A stretch of 64,000 nt of DNA, filler included, from Basidiobolus ranarum (lineage: Eukaryota), in the NCBI GenBank assembly GCA_040143965.1. It is 33 parts of 33 records of this genome, joined end to end, with 100 filler letters (N's around TTAATTAATTAA, not from the genome) between each part and the next. Parts side by side here need not be neighbours in the genome. Positions count along the whole stretch, not along the records: positions 46,744 to 48,582 come from JASJQH010011112.1; 32 more parts are not named here. One strand, given 5' to 3'. Below the pieces are notes generated by a model that saw only the letters and a program-made list of their open reading frames with translations, did not search any database and was not told where the DNA came from. Positions 7,816-54,497 of this stretch are shown here, in pieces (position 1 is the stretch's first letter; every line of letters begins with the position of its first letter). The translations under genes and the position numbers were made by a program.

Positions 7816-7987
7816 ATAGCTCATTTTACTCCCACAGATGTTCTGAACACAACCCCAGTGTTAGTTTTCTGTATTTCCACCAAAAAGTATAAATGCTTTA
7901 TTTCTGGACAATAAACAATTATCTCAAAAAGCTATTCACAACTCCACTTTTCTAAAGTTCCTCCAAACAGCCCATATTTTCCCAATA
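7816..7987 (+). repeat. LTR2 3' portion inserted in gypsy pol
   Basis: Ends CCCATATTTTCCCAATA. Confidence 0.88.
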
Positions 7988-9667
7988 AACCATTGTCAAG
8001 CAAGATGGTCATTATTTCTTGTCAGTTTTGATTTTGTGATTACATATTGACCAGGTAGCCAGCAAGGAAAGCCTGATGCCATATCACGTAGAGCAGAATA
8101 TCAGCCTAAAGAGGGGGATGAGGCCTTTGGCCAACAAAATACTTCCTTACTGAAGCCCCACCAACTTCAAATTAGTGCAACTGCTCTTTCTCTTCCTAGT
8201 GCAGGCACACTCCATGAAGACATCTACAAACTCCAATCTGAAGACTCATTGGTGCTATCAATCAAGAAAGCCCAGTAAACACCTAAAGACCTCTCAAGCT
8301 TGAACCTGTACTGCCATTTCTCTATCATCAATGAACTCTTGTTTTATAAGAAGCACCTTTACATTCCAGACCACACTTCTAGACTCAAAATCATGCAGGA
8401 AAGACATGACTCACTACTGGCAGGACACTTTGGTGTTGCCAAATCATATATGTTGGCATCCAGGGATTATTGGTGGCCCAAAATGTTTGCATTTGTCAAG
8501 AATTATGTTTCCACCTATGATACTTGTGCTTCAGTGAAGACTCCAAGACATCAGCCCTATGGCCTCCTGCAGCTGCTTCCAATTCCTGATCAACAGTGGA
8601 AATCCATATCCCTGGATTTCATAACTGATCTACCCATGTCTGCCAAATATGATTCAATTTTAGTAATTGTTCACCATCTAACAAAGATGGCTCACTTTGT
8701 GCCCTGCAACAAGTCAATTGATACAAAACAAACAGCAGAATTGGTAACTCAAAACATCTCCCACCTACATGGACTCCCTGAAACTATCATCTCTGACCAA
8801 GGACCTCAGTTTGCTTCCAAATTCTGGAAAAGCCTCCTCTGTACCTTGGGTATCTCTGCCATTCTCTCCACTGCCTTCCATCCCCAATCTGATGGCCAAA
8901 CAAAAAGAGTCAATCAAGTTTTAGTACAATATTTGCAATGAACTATCAACTTTAATCAACATAATTGGGCACAACTCCTGGCTCTTGCTGAATTTGCTTA
9001 CAACAATTCTTGTCATACCTCAAAAAAACAAACTCCTTTCTTTGCAAATTATGGATTCCATCCTTGTTTCACAATTTACCCTCCATCTAATCTACCTTGC
9101 CCTGCTGTCTCAGACCATGCCACTTTTCTTAAGGACATCAATAAATAGTTAATATCCAAGTTGGAACATGCTCAATCCAAATACAAGAGCTTTGCTGATA
9201 AGAAAAGAAAGCCAAGCCCAGATCTCAAGCCTGGAGATTATGTTTGGCTACTCCAGAAAAATATCAAAACCATGAGATCTTGTGATGAACTTGATCATAA
9301 AAGACTAGGGCCTTTTAAGATTATTAAGCAAATCAATTTGGTAGCCTTCTGATTTGAACTCCCAGCCCATTTCAAAGTCCACAATGTATTCCATGTGTCC
9401 CTCTTAGAGCCACATGTCAGAAACACCTTCCAGGGCTGATCCATTGACCCACCCCCATCAATCCAAGTGGAAGAACACCCTGAATATGAAGTTAGCAAAA
9501 TCCTATATTCCAGAATTTATTGACATAAGTTGCAATATTTAGTGGATTGGAAAGGATACTCAACAAATGATCAATCATCGGAGCCAGCAACATATCTTTC
9601 CAATTCCAAGGAACTTTGCCAGGAGTTTCATGAAGCCTACCCAGACAAACAAGGCCCTATGATGTCT
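7988..9667 (+). mobile_element. Ty3/gypsy chromovirus pol: RNase H end, integrase, chromodomain (degenerate)
   Basis: KPDAISR, HDSLLAGHFG, ISLDFITDLP, ISDQGPQF, HPQSDGQT, GPFKI, VHNVFHVS, QYLVDWKGY. Confidence 0.95.
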
Positions 9668-9989
9668 NNNNNNNNNNNNNNNNNNNNNNNNNNNNNNNNN
9701 NNNNNNNNNNNTTAATTAATTAANNNNNNNNNNNNNNNNNNNNNNNNNNNNNNNNNNNNNNNNNNNNTCCTTGATCAGACTGAGGTCTGATCAATGCCAG
9801 TTATCAATAAAGATTCTTGCCAAAGTATCTTCCTTGTCCAGTCTTGTCTTGTGGTCTACACCCAAGTACTCTCCTGCCCTCTAGCCTCTTGTTGTTGTTT
9901 CCAATCCTTGTTCAGTTCCTTATTTTGACAGTATGTTTTGTTATCACATGAAATGCAGTGTTCTTAGCTAGTCAAGTATAAGTTAAAAT

Positions 9990-10900
9990 ATCTTCAAGTA
10001 CAGTAATAGCAGATCCTTACATATAACCTAAGGCTGTAACTAACTTCCTTAACCACACAGCTGCTTGGGTAGTAGCAGAGGTTTCCATATACTCTGCTTC
10101 TGCAGTGGAAAGTGCTATGATTGGAGGCTTCATAATATTCCAAATAATGGTTCCATTAATGTAGAGAGAAGAGTAGCCAATTGTTGATCTTCTACCATCC
10201 AGGTCCCTTCCCCTGTTTGCATCACACTAGCTTTCAGCATTTTATCCATCAGGAGTCCTAGAATAATATAGAACTTAGTCTGCAGTTCCTGCTATTTTCC
10301 TGAATATATGTTATACTGCTGTTTTATGCTCAGAGCCTGGTTTTTTGAGATATTATCTGGCAGTTCCCTATGCCACAGCAATGCGTAGAAAAGATCCAAC
10401 CAGTGTATACATGAAGCCACCCACCATGGACTGATAAGCCAACTCCTGGTTTTGATTTGGGGCATTTGGGAACAAATTGATGAGATTTTGATTAATTTTT
10501 CAACAGGATCCATTGGTGTTGATACCAACTTGCTATTCTCCATTTTCAAGTGCTTTAGAATGTCTGGGACATATGTAGACTGATTCCGCACCGTATTCTG
10601 ATTGGTTTTATCTTTCTTGATTTGGACTTTGGGGAAATTGTTCAAATCCCATATCAATATTCTGAAATTGGTTTGATAAGCTACTTTTTGTCTAATTAAG
10701 AGCTTTTAGATCATTAGTGGCAATGATGAAGTCATTTACCTAAGGTACCAAGAAAAGGATCCTATTACTGGTGGTTTTGATATTAATGCTGTGATCAACA
10801 GTGCCTTTATTTGAAATCTAGATATTCCAAATAGGTATCTGACTTATGTGCCAAGCTCTGTGTGCTTGCTTGAGTCCATATAGCAATTTACCACATAAAG
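9990..10900 (-). mobile_element. Degenerate copia RT-RNase H
   Basis: LYGLKQA, VSTPMDP, RRSTIGY, ALSTAEAEYM remnants; many stops. Confidence 0.85.
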
Positions 10901-11104
10901 ACCATCTTGTTGAATCATGCCTGGGTACTTGCATTAGTCTTTATAATGATTTTTGCAGTTTACCAACCATATGAGGGTGTTTTGGGTCACCAAAAGCATA
11001 TGCTAGCTCCATATAGATTGCATTTGTATATCACCAAAAAGTATAAATGCTTTATTTCTGGACAATAAATAACTAACATTCTTTCAAACAGCCCATATTT
11101 TCCA

Positions 11105-11600
11105 ATCATGGTGTCACCCTAGATGTGGCCCACTAAACCAAATGCTATTTCCTTCCAGATCTGTTGAAGCCTGGAACTTTACACAGCAAGCTTTGAACTT
11201 GCTGGAATCAAATAGCTTTGGTTGCTTTTAGGCCAGTAAATTCTCACAGTAAATATGTCTAGAATTCTTCTGATATGAACTCTATTGAGAAATACTCCAG
11301 GAAATGGAAGGAAATTAGAGTCTCTGAACATTTTGTCCCAGGCATTTTCAACATCATTCATCACTGAAGCTAGATAATTCTCACTTACTTAAAGCCTGGC
11401 ATGAAAGCTTCTCCTACTTTTGCTACCATCAATAGTGCACTTAAATCTGACTGGACAATAGTTTTTGTAGTAACAAAACAAACTTACTAGCTGCTTTCTG
11501 GTAGGTAGTGGAGTATATGAGCCACAGTATTTCTCAAATATAGCTTCTAGGGTGGTGATAGGAAAGCCAGTTGTTGCTTTTGGATTAATGAGGAATGACC
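11105..11600 (-). mobile_element. PIF/Harbinger-type DDE transposase fragment (pseudogene)
   Basis: Manual translation RILDIFTVRIYWP..QSY / SSKFKACCVKFQASTDLEGNSIWFSGPHLG*HHD resembles the DDE_Tnp_4 pattern (D..RP..Q..YSGK..K.Q..D..G..SGP..G..HD). Confidence 0.65.
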
Positions 11601-11719
11601 ATTTAGAGTAGATGGAGTGNNNNNNNNNNNNNNNNNNNNNNNNNNNNNNNNNNNNNNNNNNNNTTAATTAATTAANNNNNNNNNNNNNNNNNNNNNNNNN
11701 NNNNNNNNNNNNNNNNNNN

Positions 11720-11949
11720 GTTTTGTCAAGATATAAACAAACTAACGTGTAGAATGTGTTAAGGAAGATCCTAGGAACATGTATGCAAAGTTTGGGGCTT
11801 CTAGCACAAGTTATCAAAATCTATATATCTGAGAACTTCTAAGTAAATTCCAATATCGAATAGTGGGTGATAACTTGGTGAAATATGGGATAACTAAATA
11901 CTAAGCTATATATGTCTATATAGGTGTTTAGGCAGTGCTAATTTCAACA
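11720..11949 (-). repeat. LTR1 (partial)
   Basis: Ends ATTTCAACA on +; matches LTR1. Confidence 0.88.
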
Positions 11950-12703
11950 GTATTTGAGATGAATTGGAAGTGTTCTAGGATAATTAGAAGAAATATGTGG
12001 GTTGTTTTATGGAATTGAAAATAAGTATTTACAATATAATATAAAAGAAGAGAAGCAGTAACAGAAATATGTTTCTAGGGTATTCAGAAAGTTGGGGTTA
12101 ATGTTCAGGGAGTTTTGGACGAGTTTGAAATTTCTATCTTTTCTGAACATTTCTGACATTGGTCAGATATATCCAAAATGTATGTGACGATTTCGACTTA
12201 TCAAGTATTAACCAAGCAAATATTCACTATGCTAAACAAGATGTATGAGTAGGTGCTGAATTCTAATATTTCGACATTGCTTGCATGAAGCAATATGTTC
12301 AAAAATCCAAATTTTAAATATTACCTAAGGTTGATCAGAAACCATCCAGAATACACAAAGCTGATAAAGTAACACTGCAGATTTAGAATACTCGACAGAT
12401 AATCCTTGGGGACATTCCGTTTACTCCGCTACATTGGGCCCAGATTTGATCACCACCGACCCGATGGAGTAGGCTTCTTAATTGATCGATGATACTTCAC
12501 TACGTTTCCCACCTTCTCATGTATCACGTGTTCTTTGCACACATACTGTAAACGTGTTGGCTGGCAAGGCATCCAAGCCCAGTTAGACAATGTTGTGTCA
12601 CTCTATATACCGTCAATGCTGGATGGGTGTAACTCATCGTTGGATGTAGGGTTTTATTATGTTCAGCTTTACATTTTTGAATCACTCATTATTAGTGGGA
12701 TGT

Positions 12704-13570
12704 TCAAGCCCAACAGAATTTTTCATTATGGTACCAATCGACAGTCCGATTCAAATCAGGTAACCAGGCCATGGATGACAATGTTCGGGTTCTAGTTACC
12801 CATGCGAAACCCTTTTCCTCACCATAATGCTGCTGCAATTCCTTATTATCCAAGTTCCAGATAACCACTTGGGGTAATGCATTGTTTCGCGCCTCTTCGT
12901 GAGCTAGTCGCATGAATCCTTCAAAGATAGCATTGGGCTCATCGTCGGGAAGTCGTATTCGAAGGATGACCAATAGTTTTTCTAAATAATCCGGATACCA
13001 AGTCACAAAATATGGTGTATCAGGCACGTATGCGCCTAACCTGGATATCGTGGCCTTGTTTTCCACCTCAACTGCATGGAAATTACTGCGTTCCCAAAAC
13101 CAATGATACGCCGGTTCAGTGGGTAATAGAAGAACCTGAGGATTCTCAAAGGTTAACGGTGTATCTAGCTCGAATTCCTTTTCAAGTAATTCACAATCCT
13201 GTTGAACTACTCGGGTCAATACATCTTTTCCCATAATTAATTGAACCTTCGGATTTTTCTTGAAGGTCCCGAGAATACTTTCGTCAACTTCAATTTGAAG
13301 GTGTTTCGGCGAATACACATGCCAACCTAATCTTGAGTAAAACTCGGGTCCTACGTCAGAATAAAGGTTTGATATCAATATCCCCTGTTTTTGAAGAAGG
13401 TTAAGTACGCCAAGCAATAACTGTGTGGCAAACCCTCTCCGACGATATTTACTAGGAGTAAAGACGGAAGCTACACTAGCTGCCTGCACTTGTTCAGTTT
13501 TCGGATGGTTTTTATCCTGTTTGACTAAGGCTGGGCGTAGAAATACTTCAAGATGAGACAGAAGGTTTAG
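12704..13570 (-). CDS. GNAT family N-acetyltransferase (LYC1-like), 5' truncated
   Basis: Frame open from contig edge; motif A VASVFTPSKYRRRGFATQLL and LYSDVGPEFYSRLGW. Confidence 0.85.
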   Translation of the reverse strand, partial: LNLLSHLEVFLRPALVKQDKNHPKTEQVQAASVASVFTPSKYRRRGFATQLLLGVLNLLQKQGILISNLYSDVGPEFYSRLGWHVYSPKHLQIEVDESILGTFKKNPKVQLIMGKDVLTRVVQQDCELLEKEFELDTPLTFENPQVLLLPTEPAYHWFWERSNFHAVEVENKATISRLGAYVPDTPYFVTWYPDYLEKLLVILRIRLPDDEPNAIFEGFMRLAHEEARNNALPQVVIWNLDNKELQQHYGEEKGFAWVTRTRTLSSMAWLPDLNRTVDWYHNEKFCWA

Positions 13571-13670
13571 NNNNNNNNNNNNNNNNNNNNNNNNNNNNNN
13601 NNNNNNNNNNNNNNTTAATTAATTAANNNNNNNNNNNNNNNNNNNNNNNNNNNNNNNNNNNNNNNNNNNN

Positions 13671-15356
13671 CTTGATGTTTTCCAGCATTTTCCCAATCAA
13701 TTCAAACTTTGATCCTATCTTGCATGGCTCATTCACATTGAATTTTCCAATATATAGCTGAGTAAGTAGTATTGGAATGTTATTGAATAGTAAGTGCATA
13801 GTGCCTAATGGGAAGCACTGGCTCCAGCTGATCCCCTTCAGCAATATAATCTTAGGCTTATGGCTAATACCAAGTTTGATGTTAGACTGACTATTTGGTG
13901 AATTGATATCAGTGATCATTTTGAAATCTGACCAGGCTCTTGATGGTAAAAACATGGAGTTTAGTGTGGTATTTGGATAGTAGTAATGCATATGCCTGAT
14001 AGAATAAACTCCATTGATTTGACAAAATCCACAGTAAGATAGTGAATTGTGCCTGCAAAAACCTCCAAGTTTACTGATGGCAGGAATGTCACCAATACAT
14101 ACAATGATATTTACTTTGATAAAATATTCACCCATCTGAACCCCATTAGATAACCATTCAAATTCTGCAATCAAAGGCTCCAAGAAGCTATCTATAAGCA
14201 CTGATGATTTAGGTCCAGATATGATGGATAGCATCAAAATATTATGACTCTTATACCATTCAGAAGGAGGAATATTTAAGTTGATTAAAATTATTGGCCA
14301 GCAAGCCTTTCCAATGGTATATTTGTTTAGTAAGAAACCATCAAGAGCCAATACAAATGCATGATCATACATGTTCTCAAAGAAACCTTGACTTTTCCAA
14401 TTCTGGTAGTGATATCCATCAAGTATATCAGTAATACCATCAGCTTTACAGTGTGTACTTTGGTATTGGATTGATGATCTATTTTTGGGTGATTTCATCA
14501 AAACTTTAAGATGGGGAATCAATGGTGTGTATGCCTAATACAAAAGATATTAACCTGATTCAGTGATTGACAATTGTGTACAAAAAGTACATGACTTCAG
14601 GTTTTTCAGATCACTGGTGAAAGCCAAACAACCATTTGGACATGAAGGTAGTTTAATTACTGAAGGATTATAAGTAATACAATTGATAAGTGTTTTTCAC
14701 TTGTACCAGGTCTGTGGCAAGCAACAGTTGCCAATCAACTGTGGTAAAAGTGTAAGAAAACCAATGAACACCTGGTTGCTAAGAATGGATTGAACTCTCC
14801 ACTCCTTGATAATCAAAGCTTCTTCCTTTACAGTAAGTGTTATGAGTTGACTAATATTTGCTGATAACAAAGAGTCCATAACAAAACTGTTGTCTTCTTC
14901 TTCAACTAATGATATACTAACATAGGTACTGGAATCACCAAGGTGAATATCTAGCAGCAAGTCCTCAAAGTTGTCTGGACTTACTGGTTCAACCAAAGTT
15001 GCATTTCTACCTACATCATTCTGGTCATATATCTGTGGTAACTCCACAGTATCTTGACTTTTGGCTGTGTTAACAAAACTTTGAGGCAAAGCACAGTCAG
15101 TGGACTCAATGGGCAAAACTAAAGTTGATTTAGTGCACATATTACTGTTGTCATACACCAGGCTTTGTGCAGCTGGTGGCTTTGTACAGTGACCATGCTT
15201 GTGATTATTTTTTCTATGAAGCATAAGGCTTTCATAGCACAAGAATTTGTGACAATTATAGCAGGGCTTCTTTAAATGTTTGTGTTGTAGCATGAGAAGG
15301 ATATTGTAGAAAAAAGAACACCTCCTATGTAAGGGTGATATCTTAGGTATAGCCAA
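13671..15356 (-). mobile_element. CACTA/EnSpm (Transposase_21-type) transposase, disrupted
   Basis: CPNGCLAF, DILDG, LALDGF, WPIILINLNIPP, IISGPK, DSFLEPLIAE, GDIPAISK, CGFC, MHLLFNNI. Confidence 0.88.
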
Positions 15357-15732
15357 ACAATATCATCAGCTGATTCCAAGACAGTGTCACAGATGAGTCA
15401 TCAGGGGATTTACAAAATATTTCCGGTAATGGATGGCAATTTTGGTTTATTATGAGCTGTTTCTAAGCAACTTCCTTACACCATGTTTACCATCTGAAAA
15501 TTTCAATGCCGTTCAAAAAGNNNNNNNNNNNNNNNNNNNNNNNNNNNNNNNNNNNNNNNNNNNNTTAATTAATTAANNNNNNNNNNNNNNNNNNNNNNNN
15601 NNNNNNNNNNNNNNNNNNNNCAAGGCAGGCTCTTCACAAGCTACTGGCTGTTACTCCACCTACTACTTCTGCTCCCAGTTGCCTACTTCTCCTCAAACAG
15701 TTTGTTTTTCCAGTTCTAGAATTTGGCTTACA

Positions 15733-17570: not shown

Positions 17571-18005
17571 GGGTATCCGCCAGATAGCTGGAAGAATGTT
17601 GATTCAGCAACATTAATACAATGGTGAGCTTTGATGGAGATATTGATACAAACTTGTGTTTGATATGAGCTCAACCTTGGGTATGAAGAACTATATAAAA
17701 ATATTTAGGAGAATATATCAAAGAAACTGGGAATTTCAAAGGTGACAAATTACTGTTCATGTGGTGAATGTGTAAAATTTAAGTTACATTTTTTGTACAT
17801 ACATTGAACCATAGCTCACTGAGATTGTAGCCAATCATGTGCAACAATTTTGCAAGATCTTGAAATTTCACTGCTGAAACTGAAAAAATTGATTAAAATC
17901 AAATCTAACTTGACAATTTTATGATGGTAAGTGAACAGTCAATCCCAAATGGATTAAAATTGTGACAGTTTTCCTACAACAACAATCCTCAAATTTTGGT
18001 TAGGG
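17571..18005 (+). mobile_element. CACTA-like element end B
   Basis: Ends CAATCCTCAAATTTTGGTTAGGG; homologous to 37036-37820, 24308, 42307, 50934. Confidence 0.8.
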
Positions 18006-19420
18006 TAAAGGCAAATTGCTATTTCAATGCTCAAGAGCTAAAACTGCCAAGAAGGTATGGAAAGCCTTGGAAGACATCTACCAAACAAGTTCTGCTGCTA
18101 ACAAGATATCTCTAAGAAGAAAATTCTTTAACTTAAAGATGAGGCCAGGAGAAGACATTAAATCACTAATTAATAGAGTCATTATTTTAGTGGATGAAAT
18201 GAAATATATTGGAGTACCTGTTTCAGATCAAGATATCATAGTTACAGTCCTGAATAGGCTGCCACATGGGTTTCAGAGCCTTGTAATGGCTCTAGAATCA
18301 AGAACTGAAAATTTGACCTTAAATTATGTATTGGCAGACTTCTGGATGGAGATTTATACAATTCAGGATCAAACCAAAAGAATAAAAAAAATGCTTTAAG
18401 AGGCTATAGGAAGCCTTGCTATAAGGTTCAAAAGCACTTGAAGAAAAAAGGTAACACATTCTATGATTTCTGTGAAAGAACTGGCCATTTAAGCAAAGAT
18501 TGCTTTAAAAGATTTGCAAAAGAAGAAAAATGTACTCAATCTGGAAATGTGGTTGCAACAGAAGATCACTTGTTCATATTGGCTCTATCTATAACTACCA
18601 ACAAGGATTCTCAGATGTGGTATATTGATTCTGGAGCTTCCCAACATTTCACAAAAGAAAAACACTGGTTTGTGGAATATTAAGAAATTCCTATTAGAAA
18701 GGTTTTCATGGGAGATGACTGCACATTGGGTGCTATTGGAATGGGAACAATTCAAGTCAATTCAACTGGAGCTTGTGAAGAGTAAGTACGTACTTTTAAG
18801 GATGTACTACATGTTCCAGATATTGCCAAGAATTTAATAACCGTATGCAAGGCTATCTCAGAAGGGCTAAAATTCAATTTTGATAAGTCAGGATGCATCA
18901 TCACTGATCAAAATGGGAATTACTTAGCTTTGGGAGAAAAGGATCAAAAATTGTACAAACTTACATATAATCCAAGAAGGTTATGTGTAAATATAAGTTA
19001 TTCCAATCAAGAAACTCTTCAATCATGGCATAAGAGATTTGCCCATATTGGATTTGTTTATTTGTGCAACATGATCAAAAATTGCCTAATTTCTCAAATT
19101 CAAATTAACTTCCCAACCAAAGTGGAAATTTCTGAGGGTTTTATATATGGAAAACAAGCCAGGCTACCATTCAAGAGCTCTGGCTTAATCAAATCTGTCA
19201 AAAAACTGTATCTAATTCATTCAGATTTGTGTGGACCTATGCAAGATTTATGTTTAGGCAGAAAAAGATATTTAATCACATTTATTGATGATTATACAAG
19301 ATACACTTGGGTCTACTTTATGGAAAGAAAGGAAGAAGCTCTCTCTATCTTTAGAGATTTTAAAACACTTGTGGAGACTGAAACTGGAACTAAAATCAAG
19401 AAAATACATACTAATAATGG
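18006..19420 (+). mobile_element. Copia-A gag-protease-integrase (degenerate)
   Basis: UBN2-type gag, zinc knuckle remnant, WYIDSGASQH, WHKRFAH, LIHSDLCGP, TFIDDYTR. Confidence 0.95.
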
Positions 19421-46533: not shown

Positions 46534-46743
46534 TGTTGAAGTTTATTGTCTTTATCATATATGTTATCCCTATCTTTATACACCTAACTATTTCATATAT
46601 CACATATTAGTTAGTCATCATTATTTAGTCAAATATCACTTAGNNNNNNNNNNNNNNNNNNNNNNNNNNNNNNNNNNNNNNNNNNNNTTAATTAATTAAN
46701 NNNNNNNNNNNNNNNNNNNNNNNNNNNNNNNNNNNNNNNNNNN

Positions 46744-48582
46744 AAATTCGAACACAAACTTAAAGAAAAATTTGGTCAGGACATAAAATTTGTCCCACCA
46801 AAAGTAGATTACGTTGATGCAATAATTAAACGTAAAACTTATGAAGGACATTACGAACACAGTAATGGCAAAATGGTTTGTAAACTCCCTCTCGTCAACA
46901 ACAAGGGTTATTACATCATCGATGGCATAGAACGAGTCCCTCTGATTCAAGAATTACGAAATATTTTTATCCCCTATGTTTCCAAGGATGAAAATGTTGT
47001 TTATTGCGAAACTAGGTTCAGGGGATCCTTGCTACCATTAAGGGTCTGCGTCAAAAATTCTGTTGATCTTTATCTAGATGTTTCATCAACTCACAAAGAT
47101 CTTAACGGAATTAAACGTATGTCTGTTTATTGGGTCATGAATAACTTAGGTTATGACTTCGGTAAAATATACGAAGTTTTTGCTTTCCTTATTGCCAACA
47201 AGTCTCACGTGAATACTTTCTCAACCGTATTCTTAGCCTCTATGACAGAATCAGAAAATACTATTACCCCCGAAGATTTAAAAATATTAGAATCCAAACA
47301 TTTCCCATCACAGAATAAGGAGAATGTTGTATACACACTCGCCCTCTTATCATATACAGCTCTTATGACTGCCATGGATATCTTCCCGCCTATGGACCGA
47401 GATGATTATGGAAACAAAATTGGGAAGGCTTCGAATATTCTTTTGGATCAGATTTTAAATCGCGCCATTAAGGTATCTGATACAGAAAATCGTCTGCAAA
47501 CCTTTTTGTATGATGAACTCTTTACTATGCTTAAAGAAGGTCAACAAATTATTCACGGAAAAATATATTCCAAAATGGTCAACTTGGTTTCGCGTAAATC
47601 TGTTATAGATGAAGTCTCTATGGTCCGCAAAATTATCGTACCTTGTGACGAAAACACTTCAAATATTCATATGCGAGCTATTCATCCCAGCCAGTTGGGA
47701 TATGTTTGTTTGTGTGAAACCCCCGAAGGAAAAAGCGTTGGTATTATCAAACATCTTGCCATGACGTGTTTGCTTTCGAACATTCCTGAAGAAAAAGTTT
47801 TTGAGGCGCAGAATTGGTTAAAAAATAATTTATCTTATGATAATTGTGACGTAAAACATTCTGTACTTTTTGATGGATACATCGTAGGATTTTATGGTGG
47901 CGATTTCGGATTTCTTAGAAACAAACTCAAACGTATTCATCCTATGATTTCTGTGTCATATTACAAACCAATCCCAAGAATTATTTACGTTAAAACATCT
48001 TCTGGAAGATTTGTGAGACCTTTGTTTAGGCTCTCGGGGGCGCCAATAGATTGGAAAGAGTTGGATAAACTTTCGTGGGATAAACTTTTGGAAAGCGGCA
48101 AGATAGAGTTTGTGGATCCAGATGAGCAATCTCAGATTACGTTGGGTGACATAGGGTATCACGGGAGACATAAGATGTATACTCATATGGAGATTCATCC
48201 ATTAGTCATGTTGGGTATTCCTGCATCTATGGTTCCTTATGCTAATCACAACCAGTCAGCTCGTAATGTTTTTGCTTCTGCGATGATAAAACAAAGTATG
48301 CAAATTTATGTTCCTTCTATAGTAACTTCTGGGGATATAAATTTTTTGGAATATGCCCAGGTGCCGTTGGTTGATACGTTGGCGTATAAATTATTGGGGA
48401 TGGAGGAGCAACCCAACGGGGTTAATTTGGTTGTGATGATAAAGTCGTACACGGGATATAATCAGGAGGATGGCGTTATTATTTCTAAATCTGCTGTTGA
48501 CAGGGGATTATTTAGGTCTTTTACTAAGCATGTTAATGTATGTGAACTTTTAGGTGATGAGTCGGAGATAATTGTTACGGGG
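46744..48582 (+). CDS. DNA-directed RNA polymerase second-largest subunit (RPB2/beta-like), divergent and probably viral; partial at both ends
   Basis: Whole contig is one 613-codon frame: AIIKRKTY, GYYIIDGIERV, DRDDYGNK, RAIHPSQLGYVCLCETPEGKSVGIIKHLA, SGRFVRPL, THMEIHP, HNQSARN..SAMIKQ, TGYNQED, SAVDRGLF. Confidence 0.96.
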
Positions 48583-48859
48583 NNNNNNNNNNNNNNNNNN
48601 NNNNNNNNNNNNNNNNNNNNNNNNNNTTAATTAATTAANNNNNNNNNNNNNNNNNNNNNNNNNNNNNNNNNNNNNNNNNNNNATTCAGCAATGTTAATAC
48701 AAAGGTGGGCTTTGATAGAGATATTGATATAAACTTGTATTGGATATGAGCTAAACCTTTAGTACAAAGAACTCTATAGAAATATTCAGGAGAATATATC
48801 AAAGAAACTAGGGATTTCAATGGTCACAAATTAGCATTCAAGTGGTAAATGTGTAAAAT

Positions 48860-52105: not shown

Positions 52106-52766
52106 TGTTGAAATTTTTGAAATTAGGTAAATAGCAACTAATTATTTAGTAGTTAGTTTATTCATATTCTGATTATTTAGTACTCAATTCTGTCATTCAA
52201 AAATTTGTGTTTATTGCTCTAAATGATAGAAATATCAATTAGATCACTTTTACTAATTTTCACTATTTTCTCAAAACTTCTCCAAATCACCTCAAATTTT
52301 CACCCATGCTTAACAGGCATGTTTGTTATGATTTAAGCACGTCCAATAATCCTATTTCGTAGTAAACTATAAATAGGACATATTCAATTCAATAAAACTT
52401 AAGTGTCTAATTCACAAATCCAAATCTTGTCCAAAACACTTCCAAATCCCCTAAACACTTNNNNNNNNNNNNNNNNNNNNNNNNNNNNNNNNNNNNNNNN
52501 NNNNTTAATTAATTAANNNNNNNNNNNNNNNNNNNNNNNNNNNNNNNNNNNNNNNNNNNNTCAGGAGTTTGTGTAATAAGATATAATAGATTAGTGGGGG
52601 TAATAAGACATACTTGTTATATAAATATAGAGATATTCCTATTTAGAATATAAGGGCTATAAATACATTGCTTTCTGTTTCTGATATATGTATCCTAACT
52701 AAAGTTAACTATGATGTTGAATAAAGATTAATTATCCAACAGAACCCCAAGCTTGCACTCTCTGTA

Positions 52767-54041
52767 ATGTCTACTTCACAAATTTATGGAACTTTTCCCT
52801 CCTCTGAAAAATTGCATAGAACCAATTATCAAGTTTGGAAAATTAAAATGAAAATGCTGCTACAAGATAAAGGACATTGGGACACTGTTGTAGGAGGAGA
52901 AAACAAAGCAAAACTATTTGAAACCAAAGTCTTGCTCCAGATTAAAGAAGAACAAAGTGCCTTTAACACAATTTGTCTTAATGTCAAAGACAAATTGCTA
53001 ATTCAATGTTCAAGAGCTAAAACTGCCAAGAAGGTATGGAAAGCCTAGGAAGACACCCACCAAACAAGTTCTGCTGCCAACAAGATGTTTCTAAGCAGAC
53101 AATTCTTCAACCTAAAGATGGAGCCAGGAGAAGACATTAAATCACTAATTAATAAAGTCACTATTTTGATGGATGAGATGGAATGCTTTGGAGAACCTAT
53201 CACTGATCAAGATATCATACTTACCATCCTGAATAGCCTGCCACACAAGTCTCAGAGCCTAGTAATGGCTTTAGAATTAAGAACTGAAAATTTGGCCTTA
53301 AATTATGTATTTGGCAGACTTCTGGATGAAGATTTATGGAAGTTAGAATACAACCAAAAGAATGAAGAAAATACTTTTCTAGGCTATGGGAAATCTTCCT
53401 ATAAAAGTCAAAAGCACTTTAAGAAGAATAGTAACACATTCTGTGATTACTGTGAGAGGACTGGCCATTTAAGCAAAGATTGCTCTAAAAGGTTTGCAAA
53501 AGAAGAAAAATATAGTGAGTCTGAGAATGAGGTTACAACAGAAGCTCACCTGTTCATATCTGCTCTATCAATGACTACAAACAAGAATTCTCGCATGTGG
53601 TACATTGATTCTGGAGCCTCCCAACATTTCACAAATGAAAAACATTGGTTTGTGGATTATGAAGAAATCCCAATTAGAAACATTTTCATGGGAGATGACC
53701 ACACATTGGATGCTATTGGAATGGGAACAATTCAAGTCAATTTAACTGGAGCTTCTGAAGAGAAAGTGTAAACTTTTAAGAATGAACTACATGTTCTAAA
53801 TATTGCCAAGAATTTAATATCTGTATGCAAGGCCACCTCAGAAGGGCTAAAACCCAATTTTTGATAAGTCAGGACGCACCATCACTGATTTAAATGGGAA
53901 TTATTTAGCTTTGGGAGAAAAGGATCAGAACTTATACAAACTTACATTTAATCCAAGAGGTTTAGGTGTAAAAATATGTTATTCAATTGACAAACAATTC
54001 AAATATGGCATAAAAGACTTGGCCATATTGAATTTGATTGT
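52767..54041 (+). mobile_element. Copia-A gag-protease-pre-integrase
   Basis: EKLHRTNYQVWKIKM, CDYCERTGHLSKDC, WYIDSGASQH; stop at 53046; interrupted by LTR3 (54042), itself interrupted by LTR2 (54125). Confidence 0.95.
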
Positions 54042-54497
54042 TGTTGGATAATTTATGTTTATTCAACATCATAGTTAACTTTGGTTATGATACATAAATC
54101 AGTAACAGAAAGCAATGTATCTATTGTTGAAGTTTATTGTCTTTATCATATATATTATCCCTATCTTTATACACCTAACTATTTCATATATCACATATTA
54201 GTTAGTCAACATTATTTAGTCAAATATCACTTAGCTGCAAATCGGAACATATATTATATATATATGTGAATTATGTGAGAATTAGCAATTACATATTGGA
54301 AATTTCAAACTCGTCCAAATTGCCCCAAAGATAGCTCATTTTACTCCCACAGATGTTCTGAACACAACCCCAGTGTTAGTTTTCTGTATTTCCACCANNN
54401 NNNNNNNNNNNNNNNNNNNNNNNNNNNNNNNNNNNNNNNNNTTAATTAATTAANNNNNNNNNNNNNNNNNNNNNNNNNNNNNNNNNNNNNNNNNNNN

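Follow-up and report, generated by a model that had tools for sequence, protein, structure and literature searches.

Endogenous "fundsalphaviruses" have been described from 14 fungal species (Gong, Zhang & Han 2020, Virus Evol veaa008, PMC7017919), with hosts that include Basidiobolus meristosporus, B. heterosporus, Mortierella elongata and M. verticillata. The genes that this account lists for them are DNAP, D5, a D6/D11-like SNF2 helicase, RPB2, RPB5 and RP1n/RP1c; their PolB groups with Pithovirus, and moss sequences fall within the fungal lineage (PMC7017919). The moss side of this lineage is represented by regions of Physcomitrella patens that resemble nucleocytoplasmic large DNA viruses (NCLDVs; Maumus et al. 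2014, Nat Commun 5:4268, PMC4083422). The gene content described there comprises D5, DNAP, FLAP, UDG, SSB, a capping enzyme, SNF2, RP1n, RP1c, RPB2, RPB5 and TFIIS; as that paper describes them, the regions have no major capsid protein (MCP) or packaging ATPase, and are cytosine-methylated and silent (PMC4083422). Here we consider a contig of Basidiobolus ranarum (assembly GCA_040143965.1), located at positions 46744-48582 of a 64-kb window (the whole stretch of DNA that was analysed). In our reading, the contig holds an inner part of a gene whose product is a miniaturised RPB2/beta-type subunit of a multisubunit, DNA-dependent RNA polymerase (RNAP), most closely comparable to the RPB2 of these elements.

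The cytoplasmic killer plasmids of fungi, or virus-like elements (VLEs), are another system to which such a gene must be compared. A Nucleocytoviricota origin has been proposed for the VLE transcription module, made up of RNAP, capping enzyme and D6/D11-like helicase, and VLEs use a protein-primed PolB (PMC13348850). In the analysis of Sykora et al. (2018, PMC6211774), VLE beta-prime regions lie near Poxviridae and Iridoviridae, other NCLDVs not being rejected, and both K2ORF6p and K2ORF7p carry beta-prime conserved regions; the fungus-associated lineage appears to be absent from that analysis (PMC6211774). Poxviridae/Iridoviridae affinities are likewise reported for the moss RP1 pieces (PMC4083422).

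We infer from shared host genera and a shared gene set that the gene belongs to the NCLDV-like lineage of mosses and early-diverging fungi, that is, to the "fundsalphaviruses." B. ranarum, Linnemannia elongata and Mortierella sp. are the sources of the named relatives of the window protein, and related metagenome loci carry PolB, D5, helicase, RPB2, RPB5 and a gene for the C-terminal part of RPB1. The gene set of the moss regions also matches that of the related loci; neither MCP nor packaging ATPase was found in the moss regions, nor among the first 25 of 32 matched Pfam families and 10 further large ORFs of the related loci. An affinity to Pithovirus appears on both sides, in PolB for the published fungal elements and in the structural matches of our RPB2 model. 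There are also differences. The account of the published fungal copies stresses decay, with stops and frameshifts, whereas the window copy is open and CpG-rich and is only a fragment of a gene; the SAM methyltransferase of the published elements is not among the first 25 of the 32 Pfam families matched in the related loci; and the host of the Physcomitrella regions is a moss, not a fungus. An earlier note on this DNA had suggested a possibly undescribed lineage, a suggestion that these papers do not support: the gene set was already published for moss (PMC4083422) and for fungi, Basidiobolus included (PMC7017919). The latter study is the only literature on this lineage in Basidiobolus that we found.

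A compact RPB2 fragment and its family

The window is composed of 33 small contigs of 1762-1855 bp each, arranged by size, and is not one locus. The contig under study is a separate, whole contig of 1839 bp and, as the earlier note had stated, shows no physical link to host DNA. Its + strand frame 1 contains 613 codons and zero stops and is open at both ends; because approximately 0.068 stops per codon would be expected at the composition of the contig (simple arithmetic), a run of this length is not a product of chance. The translation and coordinates likewise agree with the earlier description of a stop-free frame of 1839 bp that is open for 43 codons before the Met chosen by the gene call. 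The ATG at this Met is not the true start, because the alignment to relatives begins within the opening codons of the contig: a relative of 963 aa (P0107) matches query residues 4-613, and the HMMER match places the window fragment on approximately residues 38-658 of that protein. Full-length relatives of 963-966 aa extend beyond the contig by ~35 residues at the N terminus and by 300-350 at the C terminus. Thus, the word "intact" that had been applied to the gene holds for the part present but not for the gene as a whole, given that the contig boundary cuts the frame on either side, and the contig is best described as an internal gene fragment that encodes the N-terminal two thirds of an RPB2-type RNAP subunit.

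The assignment to RPB2 is carried by domains, motifs and predicted fold (Table 1). Pfam recognises Rpb2 domain 3 (7.2e-15, 55.3 bits, against a cut-off of 21) and the start of Rpb2 domain 6 (6.6e-25, 88.4 bits, against a cut-off of 23.4), the latter over profile positions 2-106 of 373; Rpb2 domains 4 and 5 score below the Pfam cut-offs. The motifs named in the earlier note, RAIHPSQLGYVCLCETPEG, NHNQSARNVFASAMIKQ and GYNQED, are all present in the translation. In the family alignment (A1), E325, T326, P327 and G329 of the ETPEG motif are invariant, as are N503, A506, G571, Y572, E575 and D576, and the acidic pair of GYNQED is the counterpart of the metal-B site in multisubunit RNAPs. The use of GYNQED to place the protein among polymerase types has weakened, as the motif is not diagnostic within the family, whose members read GYNQED, GYNMED, GYNEED or GYGMED. 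The window contig ends at residue 613, before the SRHxQKG/zinc-ribbon part; in full-length relatives, the C-terminal SRHAQKG (ASRHAQKG) and a zinc ribbon with four invariant cysteines are conserved.

Could the fragment belong to a cellular RNAP, either as a divergent host paralog or as a gene from another eukaryote, for instance a microsporidian, that contaminated the DNA? The best matches among solved structures are indeed cellular, with Pol II RPB2 at 4.8e-45 and archaeal Rpo2 at 4.4e-44, followed by Pol III (4.7e-36), African swine fever virus (ASFV; 2.9e-22), Pol I (1.7e-21) and vaccinia (4.8e-9). These sequence matches to PDB chains are confined to residues 281-593, at ~35% identity, and residues 1-280 have no significant sequence match among the solved RPB2 chains in the PDB. 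The AlphaFold2 (AF2) model built from the family alignment has an overall pLDDT of 70.4, with residues 1-270 at 75-93, and its Z scores against the second subunits of Pol I, II and III, archaea and ASFV are effectively tied at 23-26.6 (435-544 residues aligned to RPB2 chains, root-mean-square deviation 4.1-5.6). The model thus supports an RPB2 fold for the window fragment across the protrusion, lobe, fork and external domains. Model residues 1-570 align to residues 54-785 of human and 58-830 of yeast RPB2, a span over which the window protein is ~160-200 residues shorter. Approximately 120 of the missing residues fall before the fork (280 residues, versus human 54-453), in agreement with the earlier proposal of a trimmed protrusion and lobe.

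An exhaustive HMMER search with the window protein returned 5371 matches. The three top relatives are all named Basidiobolus ranarum, at 91% (P0106, 450 aa), 88% (P0109) and 65% identity, and full-length relatives of 963 and 966 aa cover the whole fragment at 45% and 43% identity. Other relatives are 811-1003 aa long, the Linnemannia elongata member having 883 aa; the relative from Mortierella sp. GBA30 reaches 1101 aa owing to a long C-terminal tail that resembles a coiled coil. The full-length relatives in the alignment are complete RPB2 proteins, ending in SRHAQKG and the four-cysteine ribbon. A profile search with alignment A2 in a word-indexed protein collection gave 11 proteins.

Phylogeny sets this family apart. 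In an unrooted FastTree analysis of 214 proteins and 1100 columns, the window protein groups with P0107 (support 97) and P0108 (support 100) inside a clade of 39 rows (support 100), and this clade, together with a five-row sister group of similarly short proteins, is split from the other 170 rows with support of 100. A quick IQ-TREE search (LG+C20 PMSF, 50 rows, 1077 columns, also unrooted) recovers the family as 12 rows (100), joined by three sister rows (99), apart from seven archaeal RpoB (100), nine viral RPB2 from IMG/VR, 15 unnamed representatives, two Nematocida RPC2, one Halteromyces RPA2 and one Rotaria RPB2; these last four are the only eukaryote rows with names. We conclude that the compact RPB2 proteins (811-1003 aa) form, on these alignments, a distinct and well-supported clade, the hosts or sources of which are Basidiobolus ranarum, Linnemannia, Mortierella and soil metagenome contigs. 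The nesting within cellular RPB2 or RPC2 that would have spoken for a host paralog or contaminant is not seen: branches with support of 99-100 separate the family from the named cellular rows, the Nematocida RPC2 included, in both trees. The relatives of the window protein are located among viral-type replication and capping genes, and another Basidiobolus record, named independently, contains a copy with 91% identity. Taken together, these observations favour the viral origin that the earlier note had claimed and make a cellular origin extremely improbable.

How close is the family to viruses already in the databases? IMG/VR yields 582 relatives, and the best 80 of these contain generic NCLDV RPB2 (top E 6e-54) and no family-level match; the best eight metagenome members of the family score from 1e-87 to 3e-100. 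Structural searches of BFVD with the model place Pithovirus LCPAC104 (2e-26) and Cedratvirus kamchatka (4e-25) first, followed by small margins by Indivirus, ChoanoV1 and an ascovirus. The likeness to the RPB2 of Pithoviridae, Cedratvirus and other Nucleocytoviricota, from which the best viral structural matches come, lies in fold and domain order, and both sides have their own transcription machinery with a capping enzyme. The differences lie in sequence and size: over the 14 best rows, identity in the structural alignments is 13-20%, and the full-length targets are mostly 1048-1433 aa long, with two of 909-916 aa, against 811-1003 aa for the family.

A side observation from these searches concerns RPB2-type genes in bacterial metagenome-assembled genomes. 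The RPB2 of a contig binned as "Neomarinimicrobiota" (L226) has 61% identity to a giant-virus RPB2 from IMG/VR, that of a contig binned as "Colwellbacteria" (L231) has 45% identity to viral and 43% to eukaryotic RPB2, and the gene of a contig binned as "Methylomirabilota" (L162) has 90% identity to Bathyarchaeia RpoB. All three are probably mis-binned contigs that carry non-bacterial RPB2 genes.

Gene content of the related loci

The surroundings of the gene can be judged from 13 family-level loci (L081-L093; E 3e-100 to 3e-57) on metagenome contigs from JGI and ENA, for which stretches of up to 22 kb per record were available and 123 clustered open reading frames (ORFs) were scanned with Pfam. 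These stretches are densely coding. The most frequent families are D5 (DUF5906/D5_N; 8 members), DUF5757 (6) and RPB5 (6), followed by PolB, TFIIS, UDG, XPG/FEN, the capping enzyme and HET with three members each; DEAD/SNF2 helicase domains are found as well. Short, separate ORFs of 321-377 aa that bear only Rpb1 domain 5 are present in five of the 13 loci, and no ORF with a catalytic motif of the RPB1 DxDGD type was found in the examined stretches, beyond which it may lie.

From established RNAP and poxvirus/NCLDV biology, we posit that the RPB2 subunit would pair with a largest subunit that the element itself encodes, split into two genes, and that the two subunits would together form the active-site cleft. 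The window fragment has the fork with its ETPEG motif, a portion of the hybrid-binding domain with NHNQSARN, and the GYNQED acidic pair. With the RPB5, TFIIS, capping enzyme and SNF2-type helicase of the element, such an enzyme could allow the element to transcribe its own genes without host Pol II.

Two further gene types deserve mention. A conserved protein with a DUF5757 domain (cluster c6, 634-785 aa) adjoins RPB2 in six of the 13 loci; in its alignment, ~70 positions are invariant, those of an NYTRE motif among them. A sequence search of the PDB gave no match for this protein, and an Atlas search gave only weak leads, to hypothetical proteins of NCLDVs. The same alignment rules this protein out as the RPB1 of the element. 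The HET-domain ORFs, one of which (in L081) is located between RPB2 and the D5 primase-helicase, point to HET-type cell-death genes being carried by the elements, or to the elements being hot spots for such genes.

The sizes of the contigs that carry family members also bear on what kind of element this is. Five of them fall between 34,875 and 36,794 bp (those behind P0002, P0110, P0112, P0114/L087 and L085): one from Mortierella sp. (34,875 bp), one from Linnemannia (36,706 bp) and metagenome contigs of 36,135, 36,749/36,794 and 35,041 bp. These contigs may be near-complete small genomes. Another subclade (the P0113 cluster) is found on contigs of 39-92 kb. With relatives on contigs of 35-92 kb, the label of a "large" virus that the earlier note had attached to the gene is doubtful.

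Table 1. Coordinates of the features discussed, in window positions unless a related locus (L number) is given
Feature	Position	Strand	Basis or remark
Partial ORF of a compact RPB2-type second-largest subunit (predicted), 613 codons	46744..48582	+	Translation, Pfam, P0107 match, AF2 model
Equivalent of the N-terminal protrusion/lobe, residues 1-281	46744..47586	+	Confidently folded, shortened; structural alignment
First ATG in the RPB2-type frame	46873..46875	+	43 codons in; Met of the automatic gene call
Rpb2 domain 3 (fork), residues 282-342	47587..47769	+	Pfam PF04565; ETPEG at 47716-47730
Start of Rpb2 domain 6 (hybrid-binding), residues 494-596	48223..48531	+	Pfam PF00562
NHNQSARN motif	48244-48267	+	Within Rpb2 domain 6 of the window ORF
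GYNQED motif, residues 571-576	48454-48471	+	Within Rpb2 domain 6 of the window ORF
Artificial spacer between contigs	46644..46743	.	N44 + TTAATTAATTAA + N44; not biological; identical spacer at 48583-48682
Contigs with Pfam-confirmed transposable elements	7816-9667, 13671-15520, 17571-19420, 52561-54397		CpG observed/expected all <=0.08
Transposable-element fragments (Transposase_21 of CACTA/EnSpm type; Gypsy- and Copia-type integrase, gag)	13671-14534, 8279-8938, 18786-19418, 53049-53768	-, +, +, +	
DUF5757 protein	L088:12074-14251; homologues in L082-L085, L089		Alignment A4
HET-domain ORFs	L081:7360-8865, L083:20762-22057, L090:2-1783	-, -, -	Among element genes

Integrated copy, episome or host gene

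What is the physical state of the window copy? The CpG content of the 33 contigs offers a starting point, as the ratio of observed to expected CpG (o/e) falls into two sharply separated classes, with 21 contigs at <=0.19 and 11 at >=0.54; a single contig, at 0.37, lies between them. TG and CA are in excess in the low-CpG class, as would be expected if repeats in this Basidiobolus genome have undergone heavy C>T decay driven by methylation. The RPB2 contig, with 59 CpGs and an o/e of 0.95, ranks at the top of all 33, and the contrast drawn in the earlier note between this contig and the transposable elements is borne out by values of <=0.08 on the four contigs in which Pfam confirms a retroelement or transposase. 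Contigs with host genes are also CpG-rich, at 0.72 for Sec7 and 0.75 for GNAT. The Sec7 contig has 82% and 77% identity to two B. meristosporus proteins, and its next matches, in Mucoromycota and Glomeromycota, are at 52-55%, which identifies the host as a Basidiobolus species. Relative synonymous codon usage of the RPB2 contig correlates with that of Sec7 at r 0.59, and GC content at third codon positions is 0.35 versus 0.40; composition, in other words, does not set the RPB2 contig apart from host genes. Host-like codon usage fits a long association with the host and does not discriminate between an insertion, an episome or virus, and a domesticated gene.

The sister copies in B. ranarum are more informative. 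P0106 differs from the window translation at 37 of 406 aligned residues, and 23 of these 37 differences are what C>T or G>A changes at CpGs of the window DNA would produce (23 of the 41 aligned CpGs); at non-CpG C/G sites, the corresponding type of change is seen at 5 of 266. With family-invariant positions defined on ten full-length relatives, P0106 has lost 9 of the 53 that it covers (R to Q, H or C; P to L; G to R), and the greater part of the C-terminal third is absent from its gene model. In the window copy, 57 of 60 such residues are retained, and the three changes are conservative (F/Y, R/K and I/V). P0109 differs from the window copy at 25 of 212 residues, none of them of the CpG type. 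Judged from these comparisons, Basidiobolus genomes contain several RPB2 copies in different states, P0106 having been run down by the CpG-mutating process that also marks the transposon contigs, with the window copy representing the undamaged state. The methylation and silence of the moss regions parallel the decay of P0106 by CpG deamination.

A possible view of an insertion site is provided by a 27.9-kb soil metagenome contig (L091), in which the RPB2 ORF at 9884-12460 is followed, after a gap of ~830 bp, by an intronless gene at 13294-15513 for VID27 (E 5e-151), a cellular gene of fungal type. This stretch resembles a junction between an integrated element and host DNA, although the element may instead have captured VID27.

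In total, we consider it probable that the window copy is a chromosomal integration, most likely one of several nuclear insertions in a Basidiobolus species, and that it would be either young or a copy spared by the CpG-mutating silencing to which the transposons and at least one B. ranarum sister copy have been exposed. The contig breaks off inside the gene at both ends, in the manner of a repeat, and this argues for multiple chromosomal copies.

Several points weigh against this interpretation. The integrated state is argued by analogy with relatives and with the literature, and membership of the published lineage by shared host genera and gene set. An unintegrated virus would also look CpG-rich, so the o/e of 0.95 counts against integration, and the 10 other gene-like contigs, at 0.54-0.89, all lie below it. 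A tblastn search of the window with all ORFs of the related loci returned 30 high-scoring pairs, all on the RPB2 contig, and no second element gene, the window sampling only ~60 kb of small contigs from the assembly. MCP and the A32 packaging ATPase are not among the first 25 of the 32 Pfam families matched by the 123 ORFs, nor among 10 further large ORFs, in stretches of up to 22 kb per record, beyond which they may lie. Finally, neither tree has a root, and a long branch leads to the family.

Might the contig instead come from a virus, or from a capsid-less element, that replicated or persisted as an episome in the sequenced culture? The fully open frame, the 57 retained invariant residues, the high CpG content and the lack of host DNA on the contig would all be expected of such an element, and relatives on separate contigs of similar size (34,875-36,794 bp) could represent near-complete small genomes. 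Preserved CpGs and conserved residues in fact fit a recently endogenised and a replicating state equally. Against an episome, a raised copy number should give a long contig rather than a 1.8-kb piece broken inside a gene, and breaks of this kind would be typical of near-identical repeated copies. Codon usage is host-like, the B. ranarum sister copy P0106 is clearly decayed, and the Basidiobolus members described in the literature are endogenous, some PolB copies having stops and frameshifts (PMC7017919). On balance, we regard a replicating or episomal element as unlikely.

Could the fungus have domesticated an old insertion, keeping it intact and unmethylated through use? The conserved residues are retained, CpG content and codon usage resemble those of genes, and the differences to P0109 look as they would under ordinary divergence. 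Yet a lone RPB2 without its RPB1 partner would have no obvious use, and the repeated insertion of distinct viruses would explain a signature of purifying selection equally well, as discussed for the moss regions (PMC4083422). Domestication therefore strikes us as very unlikely.

Implications for the lineage and its hosts

Earlier publications already cover the lineage with its gene set and split RPB1, as well as its presence in Basidiobolus, and the find is thus incremental. What the present comparison adds is fourfold: RPB2 is miniaturised across the whole lineage and forms a clade of its own; Basidiobolus copies differ in their CpG decay; the 35-37 kb size of five independent family contigs hints at small, complete genomes; and HET-domain genes occur among the genes of the elements.

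A bolder proposal can be built on these observations, namely, that the window copy derives from a still-active, small (tens of kilobases) NCLDV-derived virus or capsid-less element with a miniaturised RNAP, possibly one whose lineage also donated the VLE module. We give this proposal little credence at present, and our literature search found no exogenous member of the lineage. The second part of the proposal follows from a combination of features: given the association with fungi, the compact RNAP, the capping enzyme and the D6/D11-type helicase, the lineage could be the donor of the killer-plasmid transcription module. The VLE system resembles that of the family in its miniaturised RNAP of multisubunit type, which works in a fungal extrachromosomal element together with a capping enzyme and a D6/D11-like helicase and for which an NCLDV origin is proposed (PMC6211774). 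The systems also differ, when compared by their descriptions, in that the RPB2 of the family stands alone and ends in a zinc ribbon, with the ORF for RPB1 domain 5 separate. K2ORF6p also carries a beta part, fused with beta-prime in one protein of ~970 aa. A further difference lies in replication, the related loci having a D5 primase-helicase and VLEs a protein-primed PolB.

In the literature that we found, double-stranded DNA viruses of terrestrial fungi are known through genomic footprints only. An open, conserved copy that has been spared CpG decay is a good candidate for asking whether this lineage is still active. The contrast between the window copy and P0106 shows that the host treats these insertions as it treats transposons. 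The compact polymerase, ~20% shorter than cellular RPB2, is a natural minimal version of the enzyme, and it may help to explain where the killer-plasmid polymerase of fungi came from.

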